From a virus (Duplodnaviria > Heunggongvirae > Uroviricota > Caudoviricetes): a stretch of DNA of 64,000 nt. This document shows positions 8,498-63,783 of this stretch, one piece after another; position 1 is the first letter of the stretch; the number at the start of each line of letters is the position of its first letter. The notes beneath the pieces are model-generated. The model did no database searches, was not told where the DNA came from, and saw only the letters and a list, made by a program, of their open reading frames with translations. The position numbers were made by a program, and so were the translations under genes. The stretch lies in IMG/VR virus record IMGVR_UViG_3300000944_000006, positions 82,380-146,379 of that record; one strand, given 5' to 3'.

Positions 8498-8641
8498 TTA
8501 CCCTTCGGTAAGAAATTGAGTATCGTTCTTTTTGTTTTTCTTACGAAGCTTTTTCTTGTTTTCTTTCAGAAGTGCTTCTTGGTCAATATATTCGTGGATA
8601 TACTGAAGGTCTTTGTCTTTGTTAAAAGTATTATTAGTCAT
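8498..8641 (-). CDS. Small late protein (47 aa)
   Basis: Manually translated MTNNTFNKDK...FLTEG; ATG lies 5 nt after TATAAATA. Confidence 0.6.
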   Translation of the reverse strand: MTNNTFNKDKDLQYIHEYIDQEALLKENKKKLRKKNKKNDTQFLTEG

Positions 8642-8646
8642 GTGGT

Positions 8647-8654
8647 TATTTATA
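8647..8654 (-). promoter_or_regulatory. Late promoter, leaderless configuration, inside a perfect inverted repeat
   Basis: TATAAATA-ACCAC-ATG; 10-bp arms span 8639-8662. Confidence 0.7.
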
Positions 8655-8684
8655 ACCACATGCAATTATTGTGTTATATAGTAA

Positions 8685-9384: not shown

Positions 9385-9642
9385 TTATTCCACGCTTTCT
9401 AAGAACTGCTTTTCGCGGCGCAAGTAACGTTCATAAAAAGCCATTTCAGCTTCAGTGACTTTTTTGTTTTTGATAACTTTTTCACGCACATTACGAAACA
9501 TTTTCAGGCGGTCTTGTTGACTACGGCCAAAGATTTCACTCTTTTTATCACGATGCATTGCGTTTTTAGTTTTACGTGCAACGTTAGGTCGTTGACCTTT
9601 GGAAGTATATTTTGTTTTACCAGTGCTTTTACGTTTTGCCAT
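9385..9642 (-). CDS. Small basic protein of T4-like phages
   Basis: MAKRKSTGKTKYTSKGQRPNV; K/R-rich. Confidence 0.65.
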   Translation of the reverse strand: MAKRKSTGKTKYTSKGQRPNVARKTKNAMHRDKKSEIFGRSQQDRLKMFRNVREKVIKNKKVTEAEMAFYERYLRREKQFLESVE

Positions 9643-9685: not shown

Positions 9686-9693
9686 TATAAATA
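9686..9693 (+). promoter_or_regulatory. Late promoter, leaderless configuration
   Basis: TATAAATA-TTGTT-ATG(9699). Confidence 0.7.
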
Positions 9694-20223: not shown

Positions 20224-21126
20224 TTATAAACTCGCTATAAAGGCTGTTACATTAATACGAGGGTCATTGACAAAAGCAAGGCGATAAAGATACTCATGGG
20301 CTTTAATGATATATTTTGATTTTTGTGCTTCGGAAGAATTTCCTGCGATAGTCTTTTCTTTAAAAGATTCATAAAAGTTTTCTGCATCTTTTTTAGAAAA
20401 AATCGCAGTTGCTATGTATGCAGAGTATTTATCAAAATTCCCAGATAAAAGTATATCAAAATCAAAATCTTTATTAGATACTTTATACACATCTGGTGTT
20501 TGCAATGCTGTTAATGTATTTCGTAAGTCTGGATACTTTTCATTAAACATTTCTAGAATGTCTTTAGGCTGCATTGAAACAGATTCTGCTTTAGCTATCG
20601 TCAATACTTTTACCAAAGCTTCTTTTTTAGTTTTCTTATCCGTCGAGCATATGTGTATGCGCGAACAACGACTTTGTATAGCTTCTATGATTCTTTCTTC
20701 ATGATTGCATGTAATAATAAATCGAACGTTTTCTGAATACTCTTCCATGAACTTACGCAGACCATCTTGCATGGCACTAGAAAGTTTATCCCCTTCATCA
20801 ATAAAAATAACCTTTCTTTTATTTTCCATAGAATATGTTTTCACAAAATCCATAAACTTAGAACGAAGAGTTTCTACATTACCATCAATAGAACCATTAA
20901 TAGAAAGAGATTCAAGATTTAGTTCTTTAATAAGGGCTTTTGCTAAAGTCGTTTTTCCTGTCCCAGAACGCTTGGAATATAAAATAAGATTAGGGAAATC
21001 TTCTTCTTCAATAAATTTATTGAACGTCTTTTTTATATCTTCATCGACTATAACATCATTGATATTTTGCGGACGATATTTTTCTGCGAATAATTCATTA
21101 TACTTCATACAATGTAGACTCCACAA
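20224..21126 (-). CDS. gp44: Clamp loader large subunit
   Basis: EKYRPQ, GTGKTT, IFIDEGD, FIITCN, AIQSRC. Confidence 0.93.
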   Translation of the reverse strand: MWSLHCMKYNELFAEKYRPQNINDVIVDEDIKKTFNKFIEEEDFPNLILYSKRSGTGKTTLAKALIKELNLESLSINGSIDGNVETLRSKFMDFVKTYSMENKRKVIFIDEGDKLSSAMQDGLRKFMEEYSENVRFIITCNHEERIIEAIQSRCSRIHICSTDKKTKKEALVKVLTIAKAESVSMQPKDILEMFNEKYPDLRNTLTALQTPDVYKVSNKDFDFDILLSGNFDKYSAYIATAIFSKKDAENFYESFKEKTIAGNSSEAQKSKYIIKAHEYLYRLAFVNDPRINVTAFIASL

Positions 21127-21778
21127 AAATATAATAAAAATTATGATTTTTTGATTTAAATTTTATAAAATATGGCGGCTGTCCGTCAACACGATTTTGA
21201 ACAGAAACTTCATAATCATCTGGTATCATCATATCAAATAATTCAGCAGTTATAAAAACATCAAGACCTTCTTTATCGGATAGATTTTTTTTAGATACAA
21301 ATTTGTTAGAAGATTTTGTTTCCATATCTTCTACAGTGATAGAAGAAGATTTGAAACGTACTTGATTGCCATCTACAATACGGAATGATGATTTTATTTG
21401 GATAAATTCGTCTCTTGTCATTTCAAACTGATGGTCAACTGTATGAATATCAATTGGCTTTTTGATAATCTCAATAAATTTTTCTAATGTTTTATTAAAT
21501 TTAAAAACATTATTACCATCAGAAGCATAAACAAAATTATCACCTTGCGGAACAATTATAGTTCTATTTTCGCTTTCAAGACTTTCTAGGGCTTGTATGA
21601 ATTGACCGAATTTATGGATATGAAATTCTTCTTTGATTTCATCTTCAATTTCCATACACATAAAAAGACTTTTTACTTTCGTACTTGTCCAAATCTTCTT
21701 GCCTGTGTAAAATGATATTCCCTCATATATGGGATACATTTTTTTTATTATTTTAAGTTCAGTGTCGTTTAATTTCAT
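21098..21778 (-). CDS. gp45: Sliding clamp
   Basis: MKLNDTELKIIK start, 226 aa, directly upstream of gp44. Confidence 0.8.
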   Translation of the reverse strand: MKLNDTELKIIKKMYPIYEGISFYTGKKIWTSTKVKSLFMCMEIEDEIKEEFHIHKFGQFIQALESLESENRTIIVPQGDNFVYASDGNNVFKFNKTLEKFIEIIKKPIDIHTVDHQFEMTRDEFIQIKSSFRIVDGNQVRFKSSSITVEDMETKSSNKFVSKKNLSDKEGLDVFITAELFDMMIPDDYEVSVQNRVDGQPPYFIKFKSKNHNFYYIFVESTLYEV

Positions 21779-37057: not shown

Positions 37058-37061
37058 TAAT

Positions 37062-38086: not shown

Positions 38087-38091
38087 ATTAT

Positions 38092-38099
38092 TATTTATA
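38092..38099 (-). promoter_or_regulatory. Late promoter, leaderless configuration
   Basis: TATAAATA-ATAAT-ATG(38086). Confidence 0.7.
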
Positions 38100-39485: not shown

Positions 39486-39519
39486 TTAATTTATTCCTTT
39501 TGGTTGTCGCTTACTTTGT

Positions 39520-39527
39520 TATTTATA
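39520..39527 (-). promoter_or_regulatory. Late promoter (leadered, strong SD)
   Basis: TATAAATA, then AAAGGA SD before the gp23 ATG. Confidence 0.8.
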
Positions 39528-42322: not shown

Positions 42323-42344
42323 TTTTACCTTTTGATTCTTTAAA

Positions 42345-42352
42345 TATTTATA
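42345..42352 (-). promoter_or_regulatory. Late promoter (leadered)
   Basis: TATAAATA with AAAGG SD. Confidence 0.75.
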
Positions 42353-42357
42353 ATTAT

Positions 42358-44121: not shown

Positions 44122-44149
44122 TTTTGCCTTAAATATTAAACTATAGATT

Positions 44150-44157
44150 TATTTATA
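44150..44157 (-). promoter_or_regulatory. Late promoter (leadered)
   Basis: TATAAATA with AAGG SD before gp20. Confidence 0.75.
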
Positions 44158-45177: not shown

Positions 45178-46734
45178 TTATTGACCTAGATTGACTTGTA
45201 CTTCACCTGTACGTTCAGCACGGATTGTAACATCAATGAAGTTGATTGAACGTGTTGGTTGCAAACGAATTGTGCAAACAAGTATTTGTTGGTCGACAAT
45301 ATCATCTGGATTGTTTGTATCGTCACATATAATTTCAAAAGCTGTTATACCACGCTTACCTTGAATATCTTCAAGAATAGGACGTAGCGTGTTTTCATAA
45401 TTTTGACGTGTGATTTCGTCGTTAAATTCAAACAAGAAGAAACGACTTGTGCGACATACAGTTCTATTAACAAAGTTAAACAAGCGCCTGACATTAACAC
45501 TTCCGAATGCAGAAGGTCGTGAAAGAAGTGTTCTGTCGCCAAACAATACAATACCGTCACTTTGGAACTTAACAATAGGGTTAATGCCGTTGCGATAAAG
45601 TTCGTCACGTTCGATTTTAGTAGGATTCCATGCAAGTTTTACTGCATTACGAATTTGACCACGATTAAGACCCGCAGGAGATTCCCAAGCTTCTGTTGTA
45701 CTTGACATAAGACCTGCAACATCTGAATTACATGGTATCCAACGGAAAACATCGTTATAACGGTCATAGAAATATTTCCAGTTATTGTCCATTACGCCAA
45801 AAGATGAAGAACCGATTGCAGTACGATATGTAAGAACGTTTTCAAGACGATTGTTCGCATTAAGAACGTCTGCTAAATCTGGTGAAAAACATGCGATAGT
45901 GTCGTTACGATTTTCCGCAAGAGATTTCACATATGTATCAACAACAACACCTGCACCACCTGTAAACATAATAGGCGTGTCAGTGTCTTCTGTATTAGCA
46001 AATAAATCCCATGCTGTGTTACGTTCGCCATCAGTAGGCGCTGCTGAAACACCACCTTCTAGTTGATAATCGCCTGCAACAGGCGTATCAATAGAATATA
46101 TGTAACGAGACATTTCATTTACCCATGATTTTACATATACATTAGTACCGTCAAGATTACGTGTTCCTGATGTTGTAGATGCAAATGGATAACGTTCTAA
46201 GACAGTACCTTTTACACCTGTAATTGCTCCAGTAGAATCTACAACTATAACATGAACTTCCCCCGCGTCTGGTGCAGCCGTGAATTGGTTTTTATAAGGC
46301 CATGCATCAAAGCTTGTTGTATCTGCTACTGATACGAAAATTGAATTGCCATAATCGCCTTTGTAACGTGCGGCAAAAAAGAAACCTGAAAGGGCTTGTG
46401 TATCAAAACTATCACGATTTGAAACGTTTAGTTCAGGGTCTGCAAAGCTTGCGTCCCGCGCATTTTGTGCTGCTGCTGCATCTGCACGAACGACAAATAA
46501 TGAACCTGAATATGTTAAGAAATTTTCTGCTGAAAGTAAATCAACATAATTTGTATCAGTTGGGCGTCCAAAAATACTAACTAAGTCGCGTGAATTTGCA
46601 ACTTGAATAACTTCATTACATGGGCCGTATTCAAAATTACCTACGAATGCGGCAGAACGTGTTGCGACAGCAACAGTTGTTTGCGTAAAATCTATATTTG
46701 TGATGTTAACGCTTGGACTTAGAAAATTTTCCAT
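45178..46734 (-). CDS. gp18: Tail sheath protein (short form, 518 aa)
   Basis: FLSPSVN, SPAGLNRG, FGDRT, NVRRLF, QPTRSINFI. Confidence 0.95.
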   Translation of the reverse strand: MENFLSPSVNITNIDFTQTTVAVATRSAAFVGNFEYGPCNEVIQVANSRDLVSIFGRPTDTNYVDLLSAENFLTYSGSLFVVRADAAAAQNARDASFADPELNVSNRDSFDTQALSGFFFAARYKGDYGNSIFVSVADTTSFDAWPYKNQFTAAPDAGEVHVIVVDSTGAITGVKGTVLERYPFASTTSGTRNLDGTNVYVKSWVNEMSRYIYSIDTPVAGDYQLEGGVSAAPTDGERNTAWDLFANTEDTDTPIMFTGGAGVVVDTYVKSLAENRNDTIACFSPDLADVLNANNRLENVLTYRTAIGSSSFGVMDNNWKYFYDRYNDVFRWIPCNSDVAGLMSSTTEAWESPAGLNRGQIRNAVKLAWNPTKIERDELYRNGINPIVKFQSDGIVLFGDRTLLSRPSAFGSVNVRRLFNFVNRTVCRTSRFFLFEFNDEITRQNYENTLRPILEDIQGKRGITAFEIICDDTNNPDDIVDQQILVCTIRLQPTRSINFIDVTIRAERTGEVQVNLGQ

Positions 46735-46774
46735 CTTTTATAAAAACCTTTTTTTATATTTTTTATTCTATGGT

Positions 46775-46782
46775 TATTTATA
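46775..46782 (-). promoter_or_regulatory. Late promoter (leadered)
   Basis: TATAAATA about 40 nt upstream of the gp18 ATG. Confidence 0.75.
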
Positions 46783-46794: not shown

Positions 46795-48447
46795 CTAAAA
46801 CCATGAAGCATCGCCGTCTGGGTTACTATAGACATTTGCATCTTCGTCATTTAAACCAAACGTTTCGTTGGTACTGAAAAATCCTACTGGTATTAAAGAT
46901 TCTTCAATTTTTTCTATATCGACATCTAAAATTTCTTTTCGAACAGATGAATCTGACATTTCGGAAAATATCTTATCACTCACTAGCCAACCAAATAAAA
47001 CAAGGGTCATGACAATATCGTCGTTTTTACCTTCGTCTGCCTGAAATGTACCGCCCCGCGCACTATCTTTAAAAATAAATGTTTTAAATTCATCAATTGT
47101 GTCTTCGTCTTGGATAAGAATTTTTTTATTTTCTATTAAAGATTTAATATTAGAGCATCCAATTTTCTTAACAGAAGATGTCATACGAACACCTTTAGAT
47201 GTTCCGCGTACCATACCATAAGATAAAATTTGACCACTTGCGCCTTTACTTTTAACCGCGAAAATATTTTCGTATTCAAGTTCGTCCCAAAGACTTTCCG
47301 CAACGCCAAATCCAAGGTCGTTAAGTTCTATAAGAACAAATGCATTATTATATGTAACGCCTAAATTTAAAATAATTTCTGGAACAGATAGTGGGGATAT
47401 CGTGTTAGAACGATATTGGGCGCAATATTTAAACGGCATTTCTGTCACATCCATGACCGAACAAACTGTGTAGTCTAATCCTTTACCATGTGCGACATCA
47501 ACAGTGATGATATATTCGCGGTCTTTTTCTGGCTTATGATATATTTTTAAATCACCAGACCTTTCAAGTGGTTCAATATGTGCCATGTTCTTTAAAGTTG
47601 CTGCTGATATAAGTGTACCTGAAGACCCTTGGAAGTCATTACCAAATTCTTGTGCAAAACGTTGTTCGCCAATATTTCTTATGGTTGTTTCTCTCCATAC
47701 ATCATCTCGCTTAGGATGTTGCCACCAATCGACACGATATGCTGTATAATCATTATTTCCTTGTTCTGCATCTATCCATGTCTTGTAAAAGTGGTTCAAT
47801 CCTTTTGGTGTAGATACAATTATAAGTTTAGAATCTTCGGAACCTGAAATAGACGGATATGTAGACGCAATAAATGCGTCTGCGACATTTGTTTGAATAT
47901 GTGCAAATTCGTCAAGAAGAACGAAGTTAGGTGTATCACCACGAAGTGAATTTTCGGTTGTTGCTTCGCAAAATATTGTCGAACCATTTTCAAATTCTAT
48001 GGATGTTTTATTATATTCTTTTATACCGTGCTGCATCCACATAGGAATGTTTTCGATTATAAGCTTTACGTCCTTTAAAAGTTCTTTAGCCATTTTTGCA
48101 GTATTGGCAAGCAGCGCACATCTCATATTTGATTGAAAGATTGCAAACCAAGCAACATAAGAACATACGGACACCGATTTTCCCATCTGACGACTTTGCA
48201 TAGAAATTACGAAACGGTTTTCGTGTATTTCTTTGATAAAGCCTTCTTGATAATCTCTTGGTACAAAAGGAACTATCTTTCCGTTGTCTACAATCTTTGT
48301 GTAGTTTTTAAAAAAATACATGTAGTCTTTTTTACACCTAATCACTTCACGCATCTGTGCGTCTGTAAGTGGTATTTGTACATTTGCTCGCCTTAGGCCA
48401 TTAATGTTTTTATAAAATATATTTTGATTATTCATCATCGTTAGCAT
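46795..48447 (-). CDS. gp17: Terminase large subunit
   Basis: SRQMGKS, LLDEFAH, VSTPKG, DVAHG, DDIVM. Confidence 0.97.
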   Translation of the reverse strand: MLTMMNNQNIFYKNINGLRRANVQIPLTDAQMREVIRCKKDYMYFFKNYTKIVDNGKIVPFVPRDYQEGFIKEIHENRFVISMQSRQMGKSVSVCSYVAWFAIFQSNMRCALLANTAKMAKELLKDVKLIIENIPMWMQHGIKEYNKTSIEFENGSTIFCEATTENSLRGDTPNFVLLDEFAHIQTNVADAFIASTYPSISGSEDSKLIIVSTPKGLNHFYKTWIDAEQGNNDYTAYRVDWWQHPKRDDVWRETTIRNIGEQRFAQEFGNDFQGSSGTLISAATLKNMAHIEPLERSGDLKIYHKPEKDREYIITVDVAHGKGLDYTVCSVMDVTEMPFKYCAQYRSNTISPLSVPEIILNLGVTYNNAFVLIELNDLGFGVAESLWDELEYENIFAVKSKGASGQILSYGMVRGTSKGVRMTSSVKKIGCSNIKSLIENKKILIQDEDTIDEFKTFIFKDSARGGTFQADEGKNDDIVMTLVLFGWLVSDKIFSEMSDSSVRKEILDVDIEKIEESLIPVGFFSTNETFGLNDEDANVYSNPDGDASWF

Positions 48448-48856
48448 CTTTGTCTTCTTCTTCTTCCATTTGTTTAATCACATCATCTATGGAACCAATT
48501 GAAGATATTTCTTTTGCTTGATTTGTTTTGTCATTTTTTGTGTCTGCTACGTGCCCGCCACTTTTATGAATATTCATTTTTGTTTCTTGAAGTGTACCAA
48601 ATTCTTTTACAAGTTTAGCGATAGAATCATAAATTTTAGGAAGGTCTGAATCTGTAGCAAGTTGTGCAGCATCTATTATGGATTGCTCTAATATAGCTTC
48701 GACGCGTTTTATCGCAGTTATTGAATCATCTTTATCTTCGATTTCGTTATTTTTTATTGCAACTTTACCTGCTTTAACGATATCAGATGATTTTCTTTTT
48801 ATTTTTTCAAGCCCTGCAAGTTGCTTGTCTATGTCGTCTATCTTTTTATTTGACAT
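48428..48856 (-). CDS. gp16: Terminase small subunit
   Basis: Directly upstream of gp17; helical, SDLPKIYDSIAKL. Confidence 0.75.
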   Translation of the reverse strand: MSNKKIDDIDKQLAGLEKIKRKSSDIVKAGKVAIKNNEIEDKDDSITAIKRVEAILEQSIIDAAQLATDSDLPKIYDSIAKLVKEFGTLQETKMNIHKSGGHVADTKNDKTNQAKEISSIGSIDDVIKQMEEEEDKDANDDE

Positions 48857-48861
48857 ATTTG

Positions 48862-48869
48862 TATTTATA
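48862..48869 (-). promoter_or_regulatory. Late promoter, leaderless configuration
   Basis: TATAAATA-CAAAT-ATG(48856). Confidence 0.75.
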
Positions 48870-48907: not shown

Positions 48908-49207
48908 ATGTACAAATATTATGTAGAAGGTCGCTTAGAATATTTTAAGAGTGATAATTGCTTTGACATTAATTTTTCTGTTTTCCTCGAAGAAAAATAT
49001 GTGCGCTTCAATGCTGAAAACTTTTTAAGCCATATAGATGATGAAGATTTTTTAGAAAAAAATGATGGAAAGATTGTTGGAATATGGTTTAAGTGTCCGA
49101 TAGATTTTTCACATAAACTTTACAAGAGTATGTGTTGGATTTATGATGAAATGGATGAAAATACGGATATTGAATATGAAATTGATAGTGTGATTATATT
49201 ACAATGA
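48908..49207 (+). CDS. YKYK-family small protein
   Basis: MYKYYVEG...VGIWF...EIDSVI. Confidence 0.72.
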   Translation: MYKYYVEGRLEYFKSDNCFDINFSVFLEEKYVRFNAENFLSHIDDEDFLEKNDGKIVGIWFKCPIDFSHKLYKSMCWIYDEMDENTDIEYEIDSVIILQ

Positions 49208-49479
49208 TGTTTAAATATTATATTGTTGGTGATGTGTCGTTTTATAAAACGAGTAATAAATATGCTATTCTTGGACAATATAAAGACCCCGTTAGATTTA
49301 GTGGATTGCACAAATTTTCTAGCGCATGTGGTGTTTATATTAAAGACTATAGTGAAGTAAAAATGTGGTTTAGAAGTATATTAAATAATGGCGAAATTCT
49401 TTGGGTTTATCAAAACGGTAAATTTATAAACGAAAACGATTATATTATAGATAAAATCGAATTTGTGAGCAAAAGATGA
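49204..49479 (+). CDS. YKYK-family small protein
   Basis: FKYYIVG...VKMWF...IIDKIE. Confidence 0.72.
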   Translation: MMFKYYIVGDVSFYKTSNKYAILGQYKDPVRFSGLHKFSSACGVYIKDYSEVKMWFRSILNNGEILWVYQNGKFINENDYIIDKIEFVSKR

Positions 49480-49736
49480 ACAAATATTGTGTTAGTGGGT
49501 ATGTGTCCTTTTATAAACGTGCTGATAAATTTAATGTTTTTGATGACATTAACATTAAATTCTTTGACCTAAATAAATTTACCAAAATCTGTTCGGTCAA
49601 AGATTACAGTCGTGTAAAAATTTATTTTAGAAGTAGTTTAACATTAACTGAAATGCAAAATTCAAAATACACATCATCATTTCAAGTTGGTAGTGATTAT
49701 ATTATAGACAAAGTTGAAATTATAGAAGTTTTATAA
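49476..49736 (+). CDS. YKYK-family small protein (recent duplicate of the previous gene)
   Basis: KYCVSG...KDYSRVKIYF...DYIIDKVE. Confidence 0.72.
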   Translation: MNKYCVSGYVSFYKRADKFNVFDDINIKFFDLNKFTKICSVKDYSRVKIYFRSSLTLTEMQNSKYTSSFQVGSDYIIDKVEIIEVL

Positions 49737-49738
49737 TC

Positions 49739-50491
49739 TTAATCTTCGTCACTTTCAAGGTCTTCTGTGGTAAAAGAAACTGTCCAATCGTCGTCAAGAT
49801 TTGCGTCAAAAGGACTAACTTGTGTTACTTTGACCGCGCCTTCTTCTATAGAAACTAATTCTACACGCCGTATAACTTGCCGTGTCTTTTTCTGTGAATA
49901 ATATTTCACAGGGGCTTGAAAGGTTATTATAAATTCTCTTTCGTCTATTGTATCTCTATCGTCTCTATCCGCTTGGAATGTTGAAGACAGTAATTTAAAA
50001 GGTACATCATCAACATGATTAGTGACGCCTTCAATAGGCTTTATGTTGATTGTAAAGTCTGGTGAAAAATATGGTATTATTTGTTCGAAAACCTGAAAAA
50101 CTTCACTCTCTTTTCTAGCAACAATCGTTAATTCTATTGTTAGGTTATAAGGAACAGGTTGAAAAAACTTCAAAACGCTGTCTGCTTCATTATCACCAAC
50201 ATTTTGTATTCTTAGTGGCACTAACTTACTTTTTTGTCTTTCTGAATCATATTCAAAATCGACTAATTCAAAAGACATGATAGGCAATCTACGTCTTACT
50301 TGCGCCGAAGAATATTCTGCATCATTTAGTTGCCTGATATATTTAAGATATTTCTGGCGTCCACCATATTTTAAAGGAACTTTATATATGGTTCCATCAG
50401 CACGTTCAATTTTGATATTGTTGAAAAGTGCAATAAATCCTGCAACAACTTTCTCTGTGGTAGAATTATAAAATGGGTCTTGTGTTAACAT
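49739..50491 (-). CDS. gp15: Tail sheath stabiliser / terminator
   Basis: LFNNIKI, VPLKYG, LPIMSFE, PVPYNL, EQIIPYFSP. Confidence 0.92.
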   Translation of the reverse strand: MLTQDPFYNSTTEKVVAGFIALFNNIKIERADGTIYKVPLKYGGRQKYLKYIRQLNDAEYSSAQVRRRLPIMSFELVDFEYDSERQKSKLVPLRIQNVGDNEADSVLKFFQPVPYNLTIELTIVARKESEVFQVFEQIIPYFSPDFTINIKPIEGVTNHVDDVPFKLLSSTFQADRDDRDTIDEREFIITFQAPVKYYSQKKTRQVIRRVELVSIEEGAVKVTQVSPFDANLDDDWTVSFTTEDLESDED

Positions 50492-50498
50492 GTATTTT

Positions 50499-50506
50499 TA
50501 TTTATA
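50499..50506 (-). promoter_or_regulatory. Late promoter, near-leaderless; overlaps a plus-strand TATAAT
   Basis: TATAAATA-N7-ATG(50491). Plus strand: TTGTGT-N17-TATAAT-N6-ATG(50515). Confidence 0.65.
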
Positions 50507-50514: not shown

Positions 50515-50790
50515 ATGTACAAGTATAAAATATATGGACAGGTAGATAATTTAGTATCTAATGGTCGCGTAGATATAGATTATCCCAATTCAAAATCTAA
50601 TTTTGATGATTTCGAAGGTTTTTATGTATCTTTCGATTTACATGATATTATGCTCTATGATAGTAACATTTATTCTGGTAAGTATGTAACCATCTATTTC
50701 GAAACTTCGGTTAAAATAAGTGGTTTGCGAAGTCCGCATTTAGACATGATAGATGATGATTGTAAAATAATAGGAGTTAAAAGTGGCTAA
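50515..50790 (+). CDS. YKYK-family small protein
   Basis: MYKYKIYG...YVTIYFET. Confidence 0.75.
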   Translation: MYKYKIYGQVDNLVSNGRVDIDYPNSKSNFDDFEGFYVSFDLHDIMLYDSNIYSGKYVTIYFETSVKISGLRSPHLDMIDDDCKIIGVKSG

Positions 50791-51082
50791 GATGTACAAA
50801 TATAAACTGCGTGGACATGTTGATAAAAATGGTGTTGATAGACCATGCACAATCGACATAGACCATCCTTCATTAGATTCTGCTAGTGGGAATCATTTTT
50901 ATATAACATTTGACGAAGCTAGTGTGCTAGAACATTTGCCAGATATTTGTCACCGTAATTATGTAACAATATATTTCGAAACACATTACACTTATTCACA
51001 ACTTAAAGAAGTTTTCGAGGAAAATAAAAACATCAATCTATCTGACGGTGATTGTACGATTATGAAGATGTATTATCATTAA
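50783..51082 (+). CDS. YKYK-family small protein (paralogue of the previous gene)
   Basis: MYKYKLRG...YVTIYFET. Confidence 0.75.
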   Translation: MAKMYKYKLRGHVDKNGVDRPCTIDIDHPSLDSASGNHFYITFDEASVLEHLPDICHRNYVTIYFETHYTYSQLKEVFEENKNINLSDGDCTIMKMYYH

Positions 51083-51735
51083 TCGTCATCGAAAACTTCA
51101 CCAAATGGATTGTCTATAGTTGTGTCTAACCAATCGTCATTTATTACTTCGTCTTCAATATCTGGTTCTGCGGAATTGTTTGCATTAGCCTGATTTTCAG
51201 GCTGTTGAATATCTTCTATGACGCTATCCACTTGCTTATCGCCTGTATCAATAATGTCGCCATCATCTGTGTAAAGTTCGCAATTGATTTTCCATGTGAA
51301 TCTTTTCTGAAACATAAAATACTCTTCCCATTTTCTAACAGACGTTATTTCATAGATAGAATTATTCATAGGAACATAGAGCAAATCACCTTCGCGTGGA
51401 CGTATGATGTCTGGTTCATTATATGTCACTTCTTCTTCAAAACGTTCTTTATGAACTTCAAAAGAAAATGATGTTTTTAAATCAATACCTATATCAGATA
51501 AAAGGTCTTCGCCAATAAATGTATCTGTGTTTTCAAGATAGAATTCAAGAGGATATGAATCGTCAAAAATTGACTGCGTGATTTCTCCAAGAACACGGTC
51601 TTCTTCAAGTATGCTTCTTGGAAGATACCTAAGTTCCATGCCATGTATTTGAATAATTTCTTTTGTAATATTGTTTAGAAGATTTTGCTCATTTCCGTTG
51701 GCAAATTCTGCGAAATATGGGTTGATTTTGCTCAT
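51079..51735 (-). CDS. gp14: Neck protein
   Basis: INPYF, EQNLL, YLPR, RPREGDLLY. Confidence 0.93.
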   Translation of the reverse strand: MSKINPYFAEFANGNEQNLLNNITKEIIQIHGMELRYLPRSILEEDRVLGEITQSIFDDSYPLEFYLENTDTFIGEDLLSDIGIDLKTSFSFEVHKERFEEEVTYNEPDIIRPREGDLLYVPMNNSIYEITSVRKWEEYFMFQKRFTWKINCELYTDDGDIIDTGDKQVDSVIEDIQQPENQANANNSAEPDIEDEVINDDWLDTTIDNPFGEVFDDD

Positions 51736-51740
51736 ATGGT

Positions 51741-51752
51741 TATTTATAAACA
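51741..51752. promoter_or_regulatory. Overlapping divergent late promoters, both N5-ATG
   Basis: Minus: TATAAATA-ACCAT-ATG(51735). Plus: TATAAACA-TATCT-ATG(51758). Confidence 0.7.
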
Positions 51753-51757: not shown

Positions 51758-52246
51758 ATGCAAAAAGAAGAAACAAAAAATTATCCCATTGTTGTTTCAA
51801 TGAAACAACTGCCAGAAATTGTGGATACTTATGGATATACATGGTTTGTTGAAAATTATTACAAAATCACAGACCTAGAAAAGAAATTTAAGAATATCGG
51901 AAATGGGCAAAAGCCAAATGGGATAGCGCCATCATATGATGTATCAAATAAAGACCTTGAAGCACAAGACGCCCGAAGAAAAGGGTTATCATCTTCTTGG
52001 CAAGAGATGGTAGCCATACAAAAAAAATTAGGTAAGTCTGGTAATATTGAAGCTGCTAAAGAAATGAAAAATATAGTTTCTGAATTTAAAAAGGCTTATT
52101 TAGGAACATGTTATGTTATTGGACGAATTTGTCCAAATTATAGTGGCGATTGTCCTTGGATAGAAATTAAAGACATTCCAGAAGAAATATACGAGCATTA
52201 TGATATGGCGCTAAATTTTTTAGATTTAGTGTCTGCCACAGATTAA
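51758..52246 (+). CDS. Hypothetical late protein
   Basis: 162 aa from MQKEET. Confidence 0.6.
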   Translation: MQKEETKNYPIVVSMKQLPEIVDTYGYTWFVENYYKITDLEKKFKNIGNGQKPNGIAPSYDVSNKDLEAQDARRKGLSSSWQEMVAIQKKLGKSGNIEAAKEMKNIVSEFKKAYLGTCYVIGRICPNYSGDCPWIEIKDIPEEIYEHYDMALNFLDLVSATD

Positions 52247-52578
52247 GCAATCTGTTTAACGTGGTCTATTGACATTTCTTCTTTTACGATGGTGAACATC
52301 ATTTCACCTTCCGAGCCTTGTGAAATATTTTTATAGAATTCTATTTCTTCGGATGTTGTGAAATATATTTCATATATGTGTTTTTCTGGGTCTGACTTAT
52401 CAAATCTATCTGGTGATGTAACTTTCACTTTAGGAAATTTTATTCTTGTCCCAGAAACTATACCTTCAGAAAAAATTATAATTTTAGGGTGAAATTCTCT
52501 TGTTTTTTCTTTTAGTGTAGTAGGATGGTTAATAAAATCATCCATGTTGAATTGCCCTGTTATTTTATACTTGTACAT
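52243..52578 (-). CDS. YKYK-family small protein
   Basis: MYKYKITG...YEIYFT...SIDHVK. Confidence 0.75.
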   Translation of the reverse strand: MYKYKITGQFNMDDFINHPTTLKEKTREFHPKIIIFSEGIVSGTRIKFPKVKVTSPDRFDKSDPEKHIYEIYFTTSEEIEFYKNISQGSEGEMMFTIVKEEMSIDHVKQIA

Positions 52579-52598
52579 GATTTACTCTGTCAATGTCT

Positions 52599-52606
52599 TA
52601 TAAATA
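52599..52606 (+). promoter_or_regulatory. Late promoter, leaderless configuration
   Basis: TATAAATA-TGTTC-ATG(52612). Confidence 0.75.
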
Positions 52607-52611
52607 TGTTC

Positions 52612-53211
52612 ATGGGAAACATTTTAAAAACTGCTATTATAGTATCGTTAATTTCTATCACAAGTATATCTTGCAGGCCAAGTACAGTCAATTATAAAAT
52701 TTCTAAGTCCGCCATACCAAATTTAAACATAGATTCTAAGCTTATACGTTGCGGAACAAAAGCAGGCACAGTTACCATACTTAATGGTGATACATATTTG
52801 ACAAACGCGCATGTTGTAACAGGATGTCGTCCTACGATAGATGGTAAATATATTCCTGTTAAATACACAAGCTTAGAAAAAGACATAGCCTTGCTAGGCG
52901 AAGGAACCAATGTTTCTAATGTGTCGTGTAACTATCTTTATGGAAAGTTTGCATCATTCTATGGATACCCCGCAGGCGCACCACAAGGTATTATGGGTCT
53001 TATAGAAGATAGTGGTAAAGTTCAACGAGACGTTCCTTTTGGCTTTGCAGAAGGGTTTGTCTATCAAGGAATGTCTGGTTCTCCAATCGTTCTTGATAGA
53101 AAACTTTATGGTATTATATTTGCATCATCCGCCGATAATAAAGGTATGTATTATATCACTGGCCCCCAAATTTGTGAATTTCTCTATGACAATGGAATAA
53201 TTTCTAAATAA
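52612..53211 (+). CDS. Trypsin-like serine protease with lipoprotein-type signal peptide
   Basis: Triad motifs TNAH, DIALL, GMSGSP; hydrophobic N-terminus ending SISC. Confidence 0.82.
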   Translation: MGNILKTAIIVSLISITSISCRPSTVNYKISKSAIPNLNIDSKLIRCGTKAGTVTILNGDTYLTNAHVVTGCRPTIDGKYIPVKYTSLEKDIALLGEGTNVSNVSCNYLYGKFASFYGYPAGAPQGIMGLIEDSGKVQRDVPFGFAEGFVYQGMSGSPIVLDRKLYGIIFASSADNKGMYYITGPQICEFLYDNGIISK

Positions 53212-57183: not shown

Positions 57184-57960
57184 CTACCCAATAAAAAACC
57201 TGCTTGGCGGAGACCACCGATTATCTATATCTTCTTTTACACGTTCAATTTCAGCTTGTCCATCTGCCTTTATAGCTTCGCCATTTAAAGTTATTCCTGA
57301 AGGAAGCGTGACGTTACCGTATTTAGAAAGGTTCATGCCCCATTGATATTGTATCATTGCTGTAGCAAGTTCTATAAGAGCATAATCAGACCACATATTA
57401 GGACATGTTATAGGGTCAATTTTTCTATAAACTTCAATACATAGCTTGTCTTCTGGCTGTAGACCGTCACGATTCATCCATTCGCCAAGGATATATAATT
57501 TACCTTTATATCGTGTAAATTCTTCACGCGGCCAAGCATTGAATATTCTTTTAATTTCATTGTGATATTGTTTTGCTAGATAGAAAGATGTTAGTGTACC
57601 TTCGGTAGACCCATTTACAAGCGTGTCATAAAGGTCAAGACGATATTGAAATGTCACCAAAGAGTTGCCACCAAAACCAAAATCACGGCATGTCGGTATA
57701 ACACGCCCAATACCTATGATATCATCAGTAAGTTCTAAATATCCTCTATCACAATCTTCTTGCGTGATGTCTTTGATGTAATATTCTAATTCTGTGCCGT
57801 CCGTGTGGTTATGATGCCACCAATCAAGAGCAAGATTAATTTGATTTTCTACCTGTGTAGTTGAAACGTTTATGTTGATAACAGGAGAGCCTAAGTTTTC
57901 AAGACATAGTTTTTTGAATTCAGACCTAGATTTAGGAAGTCCAGAAATATTATTCGTCAT
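57184..57960 (-). CDS. gp13: Neck protein
   Basis: LGSPVININV, HHNHTDG, QWGMNLSKY..LPSGITLNG. Confidence 0.95.
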   Translation of the reverse strand: MTNNISGLPKSRSEFKKLCLENLGSPVININVSTTQVENQINLALDWWHHNHTDGTELEYYIKDITQEDCDRGYLELTDDIIGIGRVIPTCRDFGFGGNSLVTFQYRLDLYDTLVNGSTEGTLTSFYLAKQYHNEIKRIFNAWPREEFTRYKGKLYILGEWMNRDGLQPEDKLCIEVYRKIDPITCPNMWSDYALIELATAMIQYQWGMNLSKYGNVTLPSGITLNGEAIKADGQAEIERVKEDIDNRWSPPSRFFIG

Positions 57961-58139: not shown

Positions 58140-61100
58140 TTAAGGGGCCGTTGATATTGCTCTTAAATCTTTGACACGCGGAACAACAGCTTTGTTAGAA
58201 CTTGTCATAACGACTTTGATAGAGAATGTTTTATATGTATCAAAGTCAACACCATTATCGTCAGTGTAAGTGATTTCATTCGTAGGCGGTACAAACGCAA
58301 ATTCTTTATAGTCATTTTGACCTGTCGAGAATGTAGCAGCATCTGTTTCTTGTTCCATAAGAACGTAAGGTCTTTGGTCAAAGTCAGTGTTGTCTTCGGC
58401 AGATAGAACGCGATAATAAACGCGAATATCAGTAACGTCTGGTTTATATGCCGTTAAGAACACGCGCAAGTAATTACCGTCAAGATTTTCAGACAGTGTG
58501 ACACGCCGCGTTATATATTTTGCTGTCGCCTGTCCATTATTTGAAAGTTCTTCATCCACAAAAGTAGAATTAATAACATTATCTACAATAATAGAATATT
58601 GACGTGTCAAATCTATTAATGGCGCAACGTGCGAAGATACTGTAGAAAGTGTTCCGTCAACTTGATAGGATTCGTTGTCACCAACAATAATTTTTCTTGG
58701 CGTGTTGAAAATAGTATTTTTATTATTTTCAATGATTTCAAAATCCGTCATTGAATTATCAAGATTTGTTGTCTTAAGACGCCAATCAACATTTGTACCA
58801 GAAAAGTCAAGGAATTCTGAAACAAATTTAGTCAAGCAAAACTCTCTATCATTTGCTACGTTTGATGCAGCATAACGGATATAGCTATTTGTAGACGTAT
58901 TAAAATCACATCTGTAAAGAGTCATTTTAAGGTCTTCTTCTTGTATAGGTGTCCATGTACGAGCATTTTGTGACTTGAATAAAGACCCTAGATGCGGCTG
59001 TGCTGAAATTCTATTGCCTGTGATAAAGTCTGGTTGTCCTAATTCAGATACAAATACTTCATATTCTTGCGAATCCGCAAGAACAACTAAAGAATATTCT
59101 GCATTAGGTGCAAGATAAATTGGAACAGGCCATGTAAATGTTGTAGCAGCAGACCCATCATTCGAAAGAACTGTATCAGAAGGATTTTTAAATATAACTG
59201 ACATAGGAACAATTTTAGACGAACTAGGGAAACCATTAATTACAGGACGTATTTCAAGACGTATTGGAACGTTAGATGTAGATTTTGTTTTAAAGAATAA
59301 ATCTACTTTTGAAATAAACATGCCGTTAGGGAATGTTCTGCCATTAATAAAGAACGTCTGTGCTAATGGGTCTGTATCGTCATCGTCGTTATCATCTTCT
59401 TCTTCATCTTGGAAAAACATAGGTGCAGGTTGTGGCACAGGAAGTGGTGCAGGTGGTTGAACAGTTTCTGAAATCGTTCTTTCTTCACGAACAACTTCTT
59501 GTGTAACTTCCAACGTGCGTGTTGATATAATTGTGTCTTCAACTGTTTGGACAAGACCTGAAGCTTGGTAACGTGCTGTTGCGTATGTAGTAGCAGCACT
59601 TTTAGAATTATTCGGGTCATCAATAAGAGTAAGTTCACGTTCACCTACACGAAATACACCTTCTGGTATAGTGAAAACACCAGACACTTCTCCCATAGAA
59701 TTTGTAACAAGCGGAAGTCCTTGGCGTCTAACTAGACCCTGAACATTATCGTCTAAAGAATCTGGAACGCCATTAGGTGCGGCAAAGATAAATTCATTAA
59801 CATTAACACCATCAAAAAATACATTTAATTCGCGGTTAGGGCGTAAACCATTCGCTGTAAATCGTATATTTCTCCCGCGCATGAAAGGAACAATAGAAAC
59901 GTCTACTATACGCGTACCGATATTTTCTGTAATTGTGTTTGGTGAAAATGTAGTACGTGTGCCTGTGCGTGTTTGTATCCCCGTCTGTTCTATTTGGGTT
60001 ACTGTACGTGGAACTTGCGTAACTGTTTGTGTAGAAGGAAGTGTAATTGACTGTGTTGCTGATGATGCAAGCTGCGGTGCTTGAAAAAATTCTCCTCTTA
60101 TGAAGAATTCATTTCCGAAAATATTAGGCAATTCAGTTGTAGCAATTGCAGAAGAAAAATCTACAATTTCTGGTTCTGTAAATAGTTGTCCTCTATTTGG
60201 CGATGTAAATGTTACAATAGACGTTTCATTTGTTTGAACTTGTCCAACCGTTTCTGTAGGTGTGAAAGTTGTTACTTCTGTTTCTTCAACACCTGTCCAA
60301 GTTGTTTCCCAATCATTCCAAGTTGTGCCAAAACCAAAAGCATCTTCTGTATTGGCAGATTGTTGTATAAATTGTATAGCATCATTGTTACCTTCAAGAT
60401 TAACAACGACATCTGGACGTGCTGTTTGTGAAATCCAATGGTCGATTGCAGGATTTGTATTAGCATTACCAATATATTTAACCACAAGATAAGGATTAAC
60501 ATTTTCAATTTTAGATGCTTTGGTTTGTGAGAAATATACAACGTCTGTGTATGGTATTGTTGCAAATTGTCCTGTCGAACCATTACCAACAATTGTTATA
60601 TCATTGTCTTCAACAACAGACATTTCAATTGTTCTTGATACAAATGGCGCTCGCATAAATTGATTTTGTGTGTCAATAGAACATCTATAATCAGCATTGC
60701 CGACATCACCTATACCATGACCTGTAAATGAATCTACGATGATGCCATTTTTAAATCTTGTGATACCTTCATTATCAGAAACTTCGGTTGCAATAGTATC
60801 TTTTTCTAGTAAAGATAGTGTTGTATAATATTCAAGATTTTCAATACGTTTTTCTAACGCCCCAATTTGGCGCATAGTGTAACGCTTATTTTCATGATAC
60901 CGAACACGTATGTCAGAAGGATTGTTTGTAAATGGCGGTATAGTCAATGTGTATAACGTCATTGCGTTGTCTAAATCTTTTGGTGAAACTGGATTTAAAG
61001 AAGGAACACCTTGTATAATTTGGAATTGTCTATCGCGCGTAAGGATAACTTTGTCGATACGTGATAGATAAAATTCATAATCTGATGTCAAGAAGTTAAC

Positions 61101-63770
61101 ACCAATATTAGCAGGTACGATAATCCCGCCTGCATATACATCCATCACGATAGGTGCATCCGTGTCATCTTCGCGGCGTGGTCTAAAGTCTATAGAATCG
61201 CGAAGTCTAAATGACTGTCCAGACGCAGGCGATGTGAAAGAAGGTATAAGATTATATGGTATATCGCCATACGAATCTACAGAAAAGAAACCTGTGCCAG
61301 AATGTTCGAAATAATCAAAGCTTACTGTCAATGGGTACTCTGTTGTTGATACAGATTGACCATTACGAAGAACAAGTCTTGCGTGGTCGTAAAAATCATC
61401 TTTTTGGCCATTATCAAAAGTAAATCTATTTGTGATATTATCACCAGAAGAATTTCTCACGCTTCGTAGGCGATATCCGTCTGATTTTTTAAGGAAGAAA
61501 GACCGTGTTGATAAATCAAAATTAGCTGCTGTTCCATTATCTATGACGCGCTCAAAGTTTTCTATAAGTGTTTTATTAACTTGTGTTGCTGTATTAACAC
61601 GAACTGTTGCAAGTATTTTTACAGGCCCGCTAAATCCTGTTAAGTCTAGTGTCACTGTTTGTGGCGAACTGCCAAAGTTAAACGTTGGTGTTATAATATT
61701 ACCTGTAGTTGTGTCTACAACTAGGAAGTGTAATTGATTATTACCAGAAACAAATTGTCTGCCTGCGCCTGCATTAATAGTAAGTGTGCCATTATTAAAT
61801 GTACCATTAAAAGCAAGGCGTGTGTTATATGTAATGTCAGAAACACCACTAGGGGCAAGTGTTCTAATGAATTGCTGATTAATTGGAAATATAAGGCTAT
61901 TTAGATGACTGTCTTGCAGATTTGTTCTGTCGTTTGTAATACTACGTGCTGAAATATCGCATCTAGCAGAATTAGCTAAATCAGTTTCTGCATATATAGA
62001 GCGAACATTAGAAAAATTTTCGCCAAAGTTCATTTGAATGTTAAACAAATAAAATCTATATTCATCAACAACGCCGTCACTTACGATTTGTCTTAGATTA
62101 GCTGTACCTATGATATTAGAAGCATTTGGTGAAGATGTTGTTGTGTCGTTTAAAAGATGTACGACTTCAAATGTGTCTGTAGCGAACCATCCGTTTAAAT
62201 TATTAACTGTGACGTAGTTACCAAACGATGTACCTACGCCAAAGTTTTGAACAGTTTCGGTGTTACGCGCACGTTCACCAACAACCGTTGATTTTGAAAT
62301 AGTTTCAAATTCGTATCCCTGAACATATGCCTTACCTGCATCCAAACAAACATCAATTTGACTGTCTGTGTTGCTGTCGATAAGTTGGAACATCCATTCT
62401 TTTTGCGAAGCGATATTTGTACCAATAGAACTGTCGCCTAACCACACATATGCCGTGTCAGTGTCTTCGCGCGTAAATTGGTCTAGTCTTATACGGATAG
62501 AACTATCTGCATCAATATCATTTTGTAATGTTATAACAATATTGCGAATGTCTTCTGTGGAAACAGCATTGCAAAATACCATTCCGTTAGTTGACCATAT
62601 TGCACTATCATCTTGGTATGCAATATCCCTAAAATCTATATCGCCCGTATTTTGTGTCGTAGCAATATTCGCACTGTCTGAAGCAACACCAGTAACAACA
62701 TTTCCTGCAATTTCTAGCTGTAACTTGACAGATTGTTCAAAATTATTATTAATAGATTCGCTACCACGTCTATATTGAAGTGTAAGTTCATTGGAACCAC
62801 TTTTAAAAATAGAAACGTTATCTTGTCCTACGCCATAACTATTTGCCGTTAGGTCATTTATTTTTGCATGTCCTACGATAGAAATTTTAAATGGACGAAC
62901 TGTATAATTACCACTTTCGTCAAATGTTCTACGAGCAAGATTATCTTCAATATCTGAATATATATCTACACGTTCGTCATTGACAAATTGATTATCTTGT
63001 GTGCGGCGTAATTCAATAAAGTTTTCTGGAAGACTTGTTTCATCTTCAAAAACAGATAGTGTTAGTGTTTGTCTAAAGCGATGTGCGCCGTCTTGACCAA
63101 AGTTTTCATGACCGTTAGCAGGGTCTAGTAAATCAGAATCTTCTAGGAAAGTAACAATATCGTCGGATACTACCATGCCTGTTATGAAAGTCGTAGAATT
63201 AGATGGTGTGCGTGAAACTATTACACGTTGCGTTTCGAAATAAATGAAGTAACCGTTATAGAACATATACCCTTCATTTATTGTAATGAGCGTACCACGA
63301 TTTTGAAAATTTAATGTGTCAAGAGTACATGAAATATCAACAACACTATCCGTCTCATGTACATATATTTCAAGGTCTTCACCTTCTTCGAAAAGGTCGT
63401 TTCCGTCGATAATTTTAACAAATAAATGTGGATTTGAAAGTTCTGTGTCAACAACTACAACACGTCCGCGCGTAAGACTATTAACGCCCTGTACAATATC
63501 GCCTGTATTGAGTACAGAAACATCACTACTAGATGTAAGTCTAAGAACTGTAATATTAGTGTCTAAAAAGCTTTCACCACCTTGAACAATAGCCCCAGAT
63601 TCAAATAAGTGACTTCCTTGTACAGAAATTTGATTTTGAAGCGTAGACTGAAGCTGTGATAATTCAGATGCTTGTAAATTCTTTGAAGGATTGAAAAGAA
63701 GTTTTAGATAATTCTTTGTCGAGTCAAAATTATCATAATATGGGGTTACATTGTGTGGATTTTCTAACAT
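58140..63770 (-). CDS. Large virion structural protein (DUF4815-like, baseplate/tail region)
   Basis: NVTPYYDNFD...LQASELSQLQSTLQNQ, LARRTFDESGNY, RFKNGIIVDSF; 1876 aa, beta-rich. Confidence 0.85.
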   Translation of the reverse strand: MLENPHNVTPYYDNFDSTKNYLKLLFNPSKNLQASELSQLQSTLQNQISVQGSHLFESGAIVQGGESFLDTNITVLRLTSSSDVSVLNTGDIVQGVNSLTRGRVVVVDTELSNPHLFVKIIDGNDLFEEGEDLEIYVHETDSVVDISCTLDTLNFQNRGTLITINEGYMFYNGYFIYFETQRVIVSRTPSNSTTFITGMVVSDDIVTFLEDSDLLDPANGHENFGQDGAHRFRQTLTLSVFEDETSLPENFIELRRTQDNQFVNDERVDIYSDIEDNLARRTFDESGNYTVRPFKISIVGHAKINDLTANSYGVGQDNVSIFKSGSNELTLQYRRGSESINNNFEQSVKLQLEIAGNVVTGVASDSANIATTQNTGDIDFRDIAYQDDSAIWSTNGMVFCNAVSTEDIRNIVITLQNDIDADSSIRIRLDQFTREDTDTAYVWLGDSSIGTNIASQKEWMFQLIDSNTDSQIDVCLDAGKAYVQGYEFETISKSTVVGERARNTETVQNFGVGTSFGNYVTVNNLNGWFATDTFEVVHLLNDTTTSSPNASNIIGTANLRQIVSDGVVDEYRFYLFNIQMNFGENFSNVRSIYAETDLANSARCDISARSITNDRTNLQDSHLNSLIFPINQQFIRTLAPSGVSDITYNTRLAFNGTFNNGTLTINAGAGRQFVSGNNQLHFLVVDTTTGNIITPTFNFGSSPQTVTLDLTGFSGPVKILATVRVNTATQVNKTLIENFERVIDNGTAANFDLSTRSFFLKKSDGYRLRSVRNSSGDNITNRFTFDNGQKDDFYDHARLVLRNGQSVSTTEYPLTVSFDYFEHSGTGFFSVDSYGDIPYNLIPSFTSPASGQSFRLRDSIDFRPRREDDTDAPIVMDVYAGGIIVPANIGVNFLTSDYEFYLSRIDKVILTRDRQFQIIQGVPSLNPVSPKDLDNAMTLYTLTIPPFTNNPSDIRVRYHENKRYTMRQIGALEKRIENLEYYTTLSLLEKDTIATEVSDNEGITRFKNGIIVDSFTGHGIGDVGNADYRCSIDTQNQFMRAPFVSRTIEMSVVEDNDITIVGNGSTGQFATIPYTDVVYFSQTKASKIENVNPYLVVKYIGNANTNPAIDHWISQTARPDVVVNLEGNNDAIQFIQQSANTEDAFGFGTTWNDWETTWTGVEETEVTTFTPTETVGQVQTNETSIVTFTSPNRGQLFTEPEIVDFSSAIATTELPNIFGNEFFIRGEFFQAPQLASSATQSITLPSTQTVTQVPRTVTQIEQTGIQTRTGTRTTFSPNTITENIGTRIVDVSIVPFMRGRNIRFTANGLRPNRELNVFFDGVNVNEFIFAAPNGVPDSLDDNVQGLVRRQGLPLVTNSMGEVSGVFTIPEGVFRVGERELTLIDDPNNSKSAATTYATARYQASGLVQTVEDTIISTRTLEVTQEVVREERTISETVQPPAPLPVPQPAPMFFQDEEEDDNDDDDTDPLAQTFFINGRTFPNGMFISKVDLFFKTKSTSNVPIRLEIRPVINGFPSSSKIVPMSVIFKNPSDTVLSNDGSAATTFTWPVPIYLAPNAEYSLVVLADSQEYEVFVSELGQPDFITGNRISAQPHLGSLFKSQNARTWTPIQEEDLKMTLYRCDFNTSTNSYIRYAASNVANDREFCLTKFVSEFLDFSGTNVDWRLKTTNLDNSMTDFEIIENNKNTIFNTPRKIIVGDNESYQVDGTLSTVSSHVAPLIDLTRQYSIIVDNVINSTFVDEELSNNGQATAKYITRRVTLSENLDGNYLRVFLTAYKPDVTDIRVYYRVLSAEDNTDFDQRPYVLMEQETDAATFSTGQNDYKEFAFVPPTNEITYTDDNGVDFDTYKTFSIKVVMTSSNKAVVPRVKDLRAISTAP

Positions 63771-63775
63771 ATTTT

Positions 63776-63783
63776 TATTTATA
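63776..63783 (-). promoter_or_regulatory. Late promoter, leaderless configuration
   Basis: TATAAATA-AAAAT-ATG(63770). Confidence 0.75.

Follow-up and report, generated by a model that had tools for sequence, protein, structure and literature searches.

The 64,000-nucleotide stretch of viral DNA analysed here (hereafter the window) spans bases 82,380 to 146,379 of IMG/VR record IMGVR_UViG_3300000944_000006, a complete virus record of 151,219 bp with direct terminal repeats and 33.6% G+C. The phage is a divergent, uncultured, marine T4-like phage whose major capsid protein shares no more than 47% identity with that of any deposited phage, with Methylophilales phage Melnitz and Pelagibacter phage HTVC008M as the nearest (44–47%), and a search of viral contigs with gp14 as the single query protein returned no close relative. 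The window carries a late region encoding gp13, gp14, gp15, gp16, gp17, gp18, gp19, gp20, the prohead protease, scaffold proteins and gp23, besides a protein of 1876 amino acids (aa) with DUF4815, homing endonuclease genes and replication genes. Our subject is the 8-bp sequence TATAAATA, a putative T4-type late-promoter box (hereafter the exact box), and the genes whose ATG follows this box after precisely five nucleotides (N5), a distance that leaves no Shine–Dalgarno (SD) sequence. An earlier note on this DNA had read these genes as a leaderless late class, and all eight sites that it had listed in the window were found in place, as were its single case of the variant box TATAAACA at N5 and its single case of an exact box seven nucleotides (N7) from the ATG. 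These sites and the genes behind them are the following (window coordinates, here and below, unless marked as genome positions):

8639–8662, minus strand: box 8647–8654 and, at N5, ATG 8641 of a 47-aa open reading frame (ORF; 8498–8641); a perfect 10-bp hairpin holds the box in its loop
9686–10259, plus strand: box 9686–9693, N5, ATG 9699 of an HNH homing endonuclease of 186 aa (PHROG 2255, residues 8–185 against profile positions 4–175)
34928–35483, minus strand: box 35476–35483, N5, ATG 35470 of a tail-tube-fold protein (gp3/gp19-like) of 180 aa (PHROG 45, E 2.7e-29)
37340–38099, minus strand: late box 38092–38099, N5, ATG 38086 of a GIY-YIG homing endonuclease ORF of 248 aa, located after the gp23 terminator (38149–38126); the domain starts at residue 27
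48428–48869, minus strand: box 48862–48869, N5, ATG 48856 of a gp16-like small terminase of 142 aa, with family match
49739–50506, minus strand: box 50499–50506, N7, ATG 50491 of the tail sheath stabiliser gp15 (PF16724, residues 7–242 against profile positions 2–238)
51079–51748, minus strand: box 51741–51748, N5, ATG 51735 of the neck protein gp14, 218 aa, placed by homologue N-termini; the same box-N5-ATG is present in relatives L001 and L004
51745–52246, plus strand: variant box TATAAACA, N5, ATG 51758 of a 162-aa gene without PHROG match
52599–53211, plus strand: box 52599–52606, N5, ATG 52612 of a protease-like protein of 199 aa with a lipoprotein-type signal peptide (weak match to PHROG 9683)
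58140–63783, minus strand: box 63776–63783, N5, ATG 63770 of the 1876-aa DUF4815 virion protein, with family match

Spacing of late boxes and predicted start sites

Against the eight TATAAATA-N5-ATG sites of the window, dinucleotide shuffles predict 0.25 (largest shuffle value 3). Across the whole genome, where spacings of 0 to 40 nucleotides (nt) to an ATG were counted for 49 exact boxes, 14 of these boxes have the ATG at N5 and the other spacings hold 0 to 4 boxes each, with a mean of 1.2 (Poisson P 3.7e-11); the distance histogram that the earlier note had proposed as a check is therefore strongly enriched at N5. Spacings N6 to N12 hold 0–3 boxes apiece; real genes also begin at two N6 sites, at the N7 site of gp15 and behind the variant box at 51758. 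Relaxing the box to TAAATA adds a single credible gene, gp25 with CCTAAATA-N5-ATG, and the N5 excess is weak among boxes with one mismatch. The effect is specific to the late box because a genome scan with the sigma-70-type word TATAAT found no preferred spacing to ATG, a result on which a leaderless early class read from a sigma-70 −10 box was also rejected.

The box-to-ATG distance is altogether bimodal, being either N5–N8 without SD or 20–46 nt with, in about 15 of 18 cases, an AAGG-type SD that stands 6–12 nt before the ATG. For the SD-led late genes of the window the distance is 22–40 nt with AAGG(A/T/C), much as the earlier note had described the leaders of gp23, gp18, gp20 and the core protein (20–40 nt), and AAGG(A) is present at gp23, gp18, gp20, both scaffold proteins, gp19, gp13 and gp55. 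SD usage in this genome is moderate by rough gene calls, which find an SD at about 25–39% of genes, no recognisable SD at about 60%, and a distance of at most 10 nt at 106 of 190 co-directional junctions.

Most of the 49 exact boxes directly precede virion, packaging or endonuclease genes and have no −35 element. Three components of a T4-type late transcription machinery are encoded as well, including gp45, which in T4 is the activator of late transcription:

30985–31416, minus strand: gp55-type late sigma factor (E 9e-13 against T4 gp55; PHROG 234, E 1.9e-36)
21098–21778, minus strand: gp45-type sliding clamp (PHROG 223, E 1.2e-19)
genome 17912–18088, minus strand: gp33 co-activator (PHROG 254, E 2.6e-10)

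The clamp gave no match in searches with T4 gp45 and Pfam PF02916 and was matched by PHROG 223. With box, gp55, gp33 and gp45 all present, the TATAAATA boxes are, as far as sequence can tell, T4-type late promoters that depend on these three proteins.

The late box of T4 occupies positions −13 to −6 (PMC1524935), which places +1 on the sixth base past the box. A pyrimidine directly precedes the ATG at 14 of 14 N5 sites versus 48% of all ATGs in the genome (P 3e-5). Of the 35 boxes with other spacings, 26 have a pyrimidine at the fifth base past the box and 27 a purine at the sixth, which for all 49 boxes amounts to 40/49 and 41/49, respectively. Since the same pyrimidine(−1)/purine(+1) step occurs in both classes, it would represent a start-site signature and not a translation signal, and transcription is therefore predicted to start on the A of the ATG at N5 sites. 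This start position fits N5 and leadered boxes alike and agrees with the T4 rule, by which the earlier note had likewise placed +1 on the A of the ATG.

Gene starts behind the boxes

Without exception, N5 starts are ATG. Besides the frames listed above, N5 ATGs elsewhere in the genome open ORFs of at least 1259 aa (gp5 spike), 228 aa (gp2), 323 aa (gp48), 88 aa and 223 aa (GIY-YIG), and only two N5 ORFs are short (47 aa and 36 aa). The earlier note had named downstream SD-led starts as a finding that would refute its reading; within 50 codons downstream of the N5 ATGs, no SD-led in-frame alternative was found. For gp5, gp48, gp15, the HNH gene, the GIY-YIG gene at genome position 82127 and the DUF4815 gene, profile coordinates place the start within a few residues of the ATG behind the box, and the N-termini of gp14 homologues align at the N5 ATG 51735 rather than at the upstream ATG 51753 of the database gene call.

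The 36-aa N5 ORF is the true N-terminus of the head completion protein gp4, aligning with Melnitz gp4 from residue 1 (residues 1–35). This gene (genome 13128–13635, plus strand, outside the window) is split over two frames: after TTT-C-GAT, where the 0 frame reads CGA TAA, the remainder of the protein continues in the +1 frame. The split is either an assembly error of 1 nt or a candidate +1 frameshift, in which a slip from UUU to UUC would precede a possibly slowly decoded CGA and the stop codon.

Three window sites deserve qualification. At 38086, the ATG behind the box is probably not where the GIY-YIG gene starts, because a paralogue (genome 19090) shares a leader of 57–63 nt and the downstream start and has a GTG at N3; the likely start is ATG 38029, and this gene is thus probably leadered, with about 57 nt of conserved, structured sequence ahead of its start. 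The two paralogues (38029–38099, minus strand, and genome 19090–19160, plus strand) have in common a leader of about 60 nt with a stem (GAAGU...ACUUC) between late box and start, which may be regulatory. A third GIY-YIG paralogue (genome 82127) and an apparent GIY-YIG gene in L001 have box-N5-ATG instead. The site at 8641 is real as a box with an ATG at N5, yet what follows is an ORF of 47 aa without family match. The N5 site at 35470 is equally real, though the "gp3" label attached to its gene is tentative, the match being solely to a tail-tube-fold family. We also considered an N5 gene of 196 aa in L001 as an orthologue of the protease-like gene at 52612 and rejected it as not orthologous; its N-terminal sequence apparently reads as GIY-YIG.

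Stable hairpins that pair the AUG occur at 4 of the 14 N5 sites versus 7% of control starts (P 0.017), with minimum free energies (MFEs) of −13.1 kcal/mol at 8641, −9.9 at genome 13086, −7.1 at genome 13128 and −6.5 at 51735. All four pair the AUG in read-through RNA and not in leaderless RNA; at 8641, the probability that the AUG is unpaired is 0.51 on the former versus 0.93 on the latter. The other 10 of the 14 sites form no meaningful hairpin, and the MFE is overall the same as for controls (Mann–Whitney P 0.5). Masking of the AUG was accordingly rejected as a general feature of the class, being found at 4 of the 14 sites.

Genome context and relatives

About half of the short-spacing sites lie at divergent junctions of 22–83 nt (gp14/162-aa gene, gp15, gp16, tail-tube-like gene, protease-like gene, HNH gene, gp48/gp4 and RuvC), with divergent ATG pairs 22–41 nt apart. 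The HNH gene at 9699 is divergent from a gene at 9385–9642 (minus strand), the gene at 35470 from a plus-strand cassette of YKYK-family genes, and the ATG of gp15 is found 23 nt from the likely ATG (about 50515) of a divergent YKYK gene; at 52612, the entire divergent intergenic region measures 33 nt. The remaining short-spacing sites are co-directional with gaps of 8–43 nt, and at gp2 and the DUF4815 gene the upstream stop codon falls within the box, 8 nt from the ATG. Behind the DUF4815 gene, a 62-aa gene and then gp13 (57184–57960) follow on the same unit, and gp17 (46795–48447), which overlaps the end of gp16, would be translated from the gp16 message.

Two pairs of late boxes stand back to back. 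At 51741–51752 the divergent boxes of gp14 (TATAAATA, minus strand) and the 162-aa gene (TATAAACA, plus strand) overlap by 4 bp, with the two ATGs 22 nt apart, and a similar pair serves gp48 and gp4 at genome 13086/13128, where the ATGs are 41 nt apart.

SD-led genes run in the same direction as their neighbours and are separated from them by spacers of at least about 30 nt. Those of the window are:

38172–39527, minus strand: major capsid protein gp23; box 39520–39527, 34 nt to the ATG, AAAGGAA as SD, terminator just upstream
39595–40923, minus strand: internal late box in a scaffold gene (39595–41184); box 40916–40923, AAAGGA as SD, in-frame ATG 40881 at 34 nt
41828–44157, minus strand: block shared by portal gp20 (42358–44121; box 44150–44157, 28 nt to the ATG) and a small scaffold protein (41828–42322; box 42345–42352, 22 nt to the ATG)
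45178–46782, minus strand: sheath protein gp18; box 46775–46782, 40 nt to the ATG, AAAGG as SD; gp19 comes next with its own SD

The internal combination of box, SD and ATG in the scaffold gene recurs in the L001 orthologue (L001:18802–18844), which points to a shorter scaffold isoform that is conserved and has a late message to itself.

Cassettes of YKYK-family paralogues (about 90–110 aa) on the opposite strand (48908–49736, 50515–51082, 52243–52578 and 35554–37343) sit between gp14, gp15 and gp16 and beside the tail-tube-like gene, breaking an operon that is contiguous in relatives. In L001 (160 kb, gp14 61% identical) and L004, gp14-gp15-gp16-gp17 are contiguous and a box is present at gp14 only, again at N5; gp16, contiguous with gp15, has none. 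Because gp14 follows gp13 within a few bases, without box and usually without SD, at 80 more distant gp14 loci, this lineage gained the gp14 box after an insertion parted gp13 from gp14. On the same comparison, the boxes of gp15 and gp16 are gains of the focal phage that came along with further insertions. A sigma-70-like TTGACA-N18-TATAAA (52550–52611, minus strand) overlaps the opening codons of the YKYK gene at 52578, and the conserved start of the family, ATGTACAAGTATAAAAT, holds a −10-like word, so that coding and promoter roles may be entangled there.

The earlier note had also proposed comparing box-to-ATG distances across T4-like phages. The gp2 gene has TATAAATA-N5-ATG in this phage, in HTVC008M and in Melnitz, though the proteins are 31–32% identical. 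Among 80 IMG/VR gp2 loci, TAAATA precedes an in-frame ATG at N4 in 8, N5 in 27 and N6 in 13 (48/80); three have it at N9, and the other 29 are mostly coupled to gp4 by overlapping stop and start codons or have a long leader. All five N5 sites of HTVC008M are annotated starts of coding sequences (gp2, a gp25-like wedge gene, CsgF, a 2OG oxygenase and another wedge gene), as are two of the three in Melnitz (gp2 and one small gene). By contrast, the single N5 site of T4 is not at a gene start. Cyanophages Syn9, P-SSM2, S-PM2 and P-HM2 have only 1–3 ATAAATA-N5-ATG sites each, counted irrespective of gene starts. In HTVC008M, gp4 is divergent from gp2 and its start lies 5 nt after the variant box CTAAATA (L013:18930–18945); the annotation begins the gene 14 codons before the Met with which residue 1 of homologues aligns.

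Interpretation and comparison with known systems

We consider it probable that the N5 boxes are late promoters whose transcripts begin on the AUG and thus give leaderless late mRNAs. At the 14 exact boxes, the three at N6–N7 and the variant box of gp25, the start site at the sixth base after the box would coincide with the A of the ATG, and the late mRNA of each such unit would have neither leader nor SD, its first cistron presumably being read from the 5′-terminal AUG and downstream cistrons using coupling or an SD of their own. The layout would arise where a gene must head its own late unit with scant intergenic space, that is, at divergent junctions, behind the opposite-strand cassettes that cut operons (gp14, gp15, gp16), in gaps of at most 43 nt and at free-standing homing endonuclease genes; genes that were formerly coupled and lack an SD could become autonomous by gaining just the 8-bp box, and the abundant head and sheath genes would keep their 22–40 nt between box and ATG together with an AAGG-type SD. 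As a likely by-product, the leaderless class would be expressed strictly late and probably at modest levels, because an internal AUG without SD on read-through RNA should be poorly used and, at four sites, would be hidden by the hairpin. Observed directly are the box statistics, the pyrimidine/purine signature, the positions of the gene starts, the conservation and the encoded machinery; the exact 5′ ends of these messages, their mode of translation and any effect on yield are what we infer from the sequence.

Several observations weigh against this interpretation. The position of +1 is carried over from T4 and E. coli to the host of this phage. One of the eight window sites, the GIY-YIG ATG at 38086, is probably not the real start of a gene that is probably leadered, and another, at 8641, opens the 47-aa ORF without family match. 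Moreover, the seven co-directional short-spacing sites could also be served by coupling or re-initiation on a read-through mRNA.

This last point can be widened into the proposal that N5 genes are mainly read as internal cistrons of read-through mRNAs in an SD-independent manner, by initiation at an A/U-rich unstructured site or by termination–reinitiation, and that their spacing reflects genome compaction. The large share of genes without recognisable SD, the many junctions of at most 10 nt and the stop codons inside the boxes of gp2 and the DUF4815 gene would all suit such a scheme, yet compaction predicts a spread of short spacings and not a sharp peak (14 boxes at N5 versus 0–3 at each of N6–N12), nor does it predict the invariant pyrimidine at −1. 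At the sites in divergent junctions, about half of the total, the read-through RNA would have to begin inside the coding strand of the neighbour, and the hairpins at four sites would block the AUG on precisely this RNA, so that we regard the proposal as improbable. Pure chance in an AT-rich genome is practically out of the question: although the low G+C content makes TATAAATA-like words common (22 in the window versus about 12 expected), the shuffles yield next to none of the N5 sites seen, enrichment is confined to N5, the ATGs open long ORFs with family matches and the layout is kept in distant relatives, which together refute a compositional explanation.

The earlier note had gone further in proposing a designed two-tier programme, in which leaderless initiation sets a low stoichiometry for low-copy parts and enzymes and SD-led leaders serve abundant proteins. 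The split itself is real as a pattern, since all four abundant proteins that have a box to themselves (gp23, gp18 and two scaffold proteins) are SD-led and 12 of the 13 low-copy or enzymatic genes with such a box are leaderless (Fisher P 0.002), and gp19 and gp13 inside operons have AAGGA too. The grouping is nevertheless post hoc and borrows its copy numbers from T4; the portal gp20, a 12-copy protein, belongs to the SD-led genes, and genome context, with which class is confounded, explains the split at least as well. Because relatives keep gp14, gp15 and gp16 (and, in cyanophage-like loci, gp2) coupled in operons without a box, leaderless status tracks operon breaks and not protein abundance. 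A designed programme is thus possible but, in our judgement, doubtful, with low and strictly late expression being a plausible consequence rather than a demonstrated purpose; that leaderless genes would evade SD-directed regulators such as RegA or exploit altered or damaged ribosomes, as was also proposed, is speculation. A temporal switch in the style of T4 e, soc and I-TevI, with a hairpin hiding the start on early or middle read-through RNA and the late RNA starting at the AUG, draws on the excess of AUG-pairing hairpins over controls and on a scheme that is known in T4 and for endonuclease genes (as cited in PMC2677866). We find it unlikely as an account of the class: most sites lack a hairpin and the overall MFE distribution is that of controls, and the switch is therefore at most an added feature of a subset.

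Leaderless initiation on late promoters remains, of these readings, the one we favour. T4 late transcription is a textbook system whose messages are taken as leadered; in open-access PubMed Central and bioRxiv literature, we found no report of a late box at N5 before an ATG. If the interpretation is correct, it suggests how late operons could survive insertions at little evolutionary cost, and late gene dosage and timing in these phages would need a different explanation. It further predicts that the hosts, which for cultured relatives are SAR11 and OM43, translate 5′-terminal AUGs efficiently. More tentatively, and with rather little confidence, leaderless late mRNAs may constitute a translation regime of their own, under selection in a large clade of T4-like phages from marine and freshwater habitats. 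The fusion of the 8-bp promoter to the ATG would then be a minimal portable module by which coupled genes, mobile endonucleases and virion genes newly cut off from their operon gain autonomy, and part of late synthesis would be SD-independent and perhaps resistant to host or phage factors that target SD-led initiation. For annotation, box-N5-ATG offers a simple sequence rule for true starts and late genes in uncultured phages. Gene starts of environmental T4-like phages are called inconsistently, given that the database call of gp14 is 6 codons too long and gp4 was missed, and the starts of HTVC008M gp4 and of one gene in Melnitz may be wrongly placed.

The boxes described here resemble T4 late promoters in the same 8-bp sequence without −35 element, in their association with gp55, gp33 and gp45, in the virion and packaging genes that they precede and in the pyrimidine/purine step at the T4 start position, and they differ in that T4 late mRNAs are leadered whereas about a third of the boxes in this phage abut an ATG. 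Leaderless mRNAs as such are well known from lambda cI transcribed from PRM and are common in Actinobacteria, Deinococcus and archaea. With leaderless bacterial and phage mRNAs, the N5 genes share a predicted 5′-terminal AUG, the lack of an SD and a strict ATG start; unlike them, they are tied to one phage promoter class and one temporal class, and their leaderless state is a predicted one. In T4 e, soc and I-TevI, a late promoter lies within a hairpin, and early transcripts have their ribosome-binding site masked by it, an arrangement also described for endonuclease genes in work cited in PMC2677866. Like these genes and the seg and mob endonuclease genes of T4, the N5 genes have a promoter immediately before the start region, homing endonuclease genes among the carriers and, at four sites, an AUG-masking hairpin with the box in or by the loop; the late transcripts of T4 e, soc and I-TevI, however, keep a short SD leader, whereas here the predicted start is at the AUG and most sites have no hairpin. 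The closest parallel is found in HTVC008M and Melnitz, where TATAAATA-N5-ATG likewise stands at annotated gene starts, though at fewer sites (5 and 2–3, respectively) than the 14 or more of this phage.

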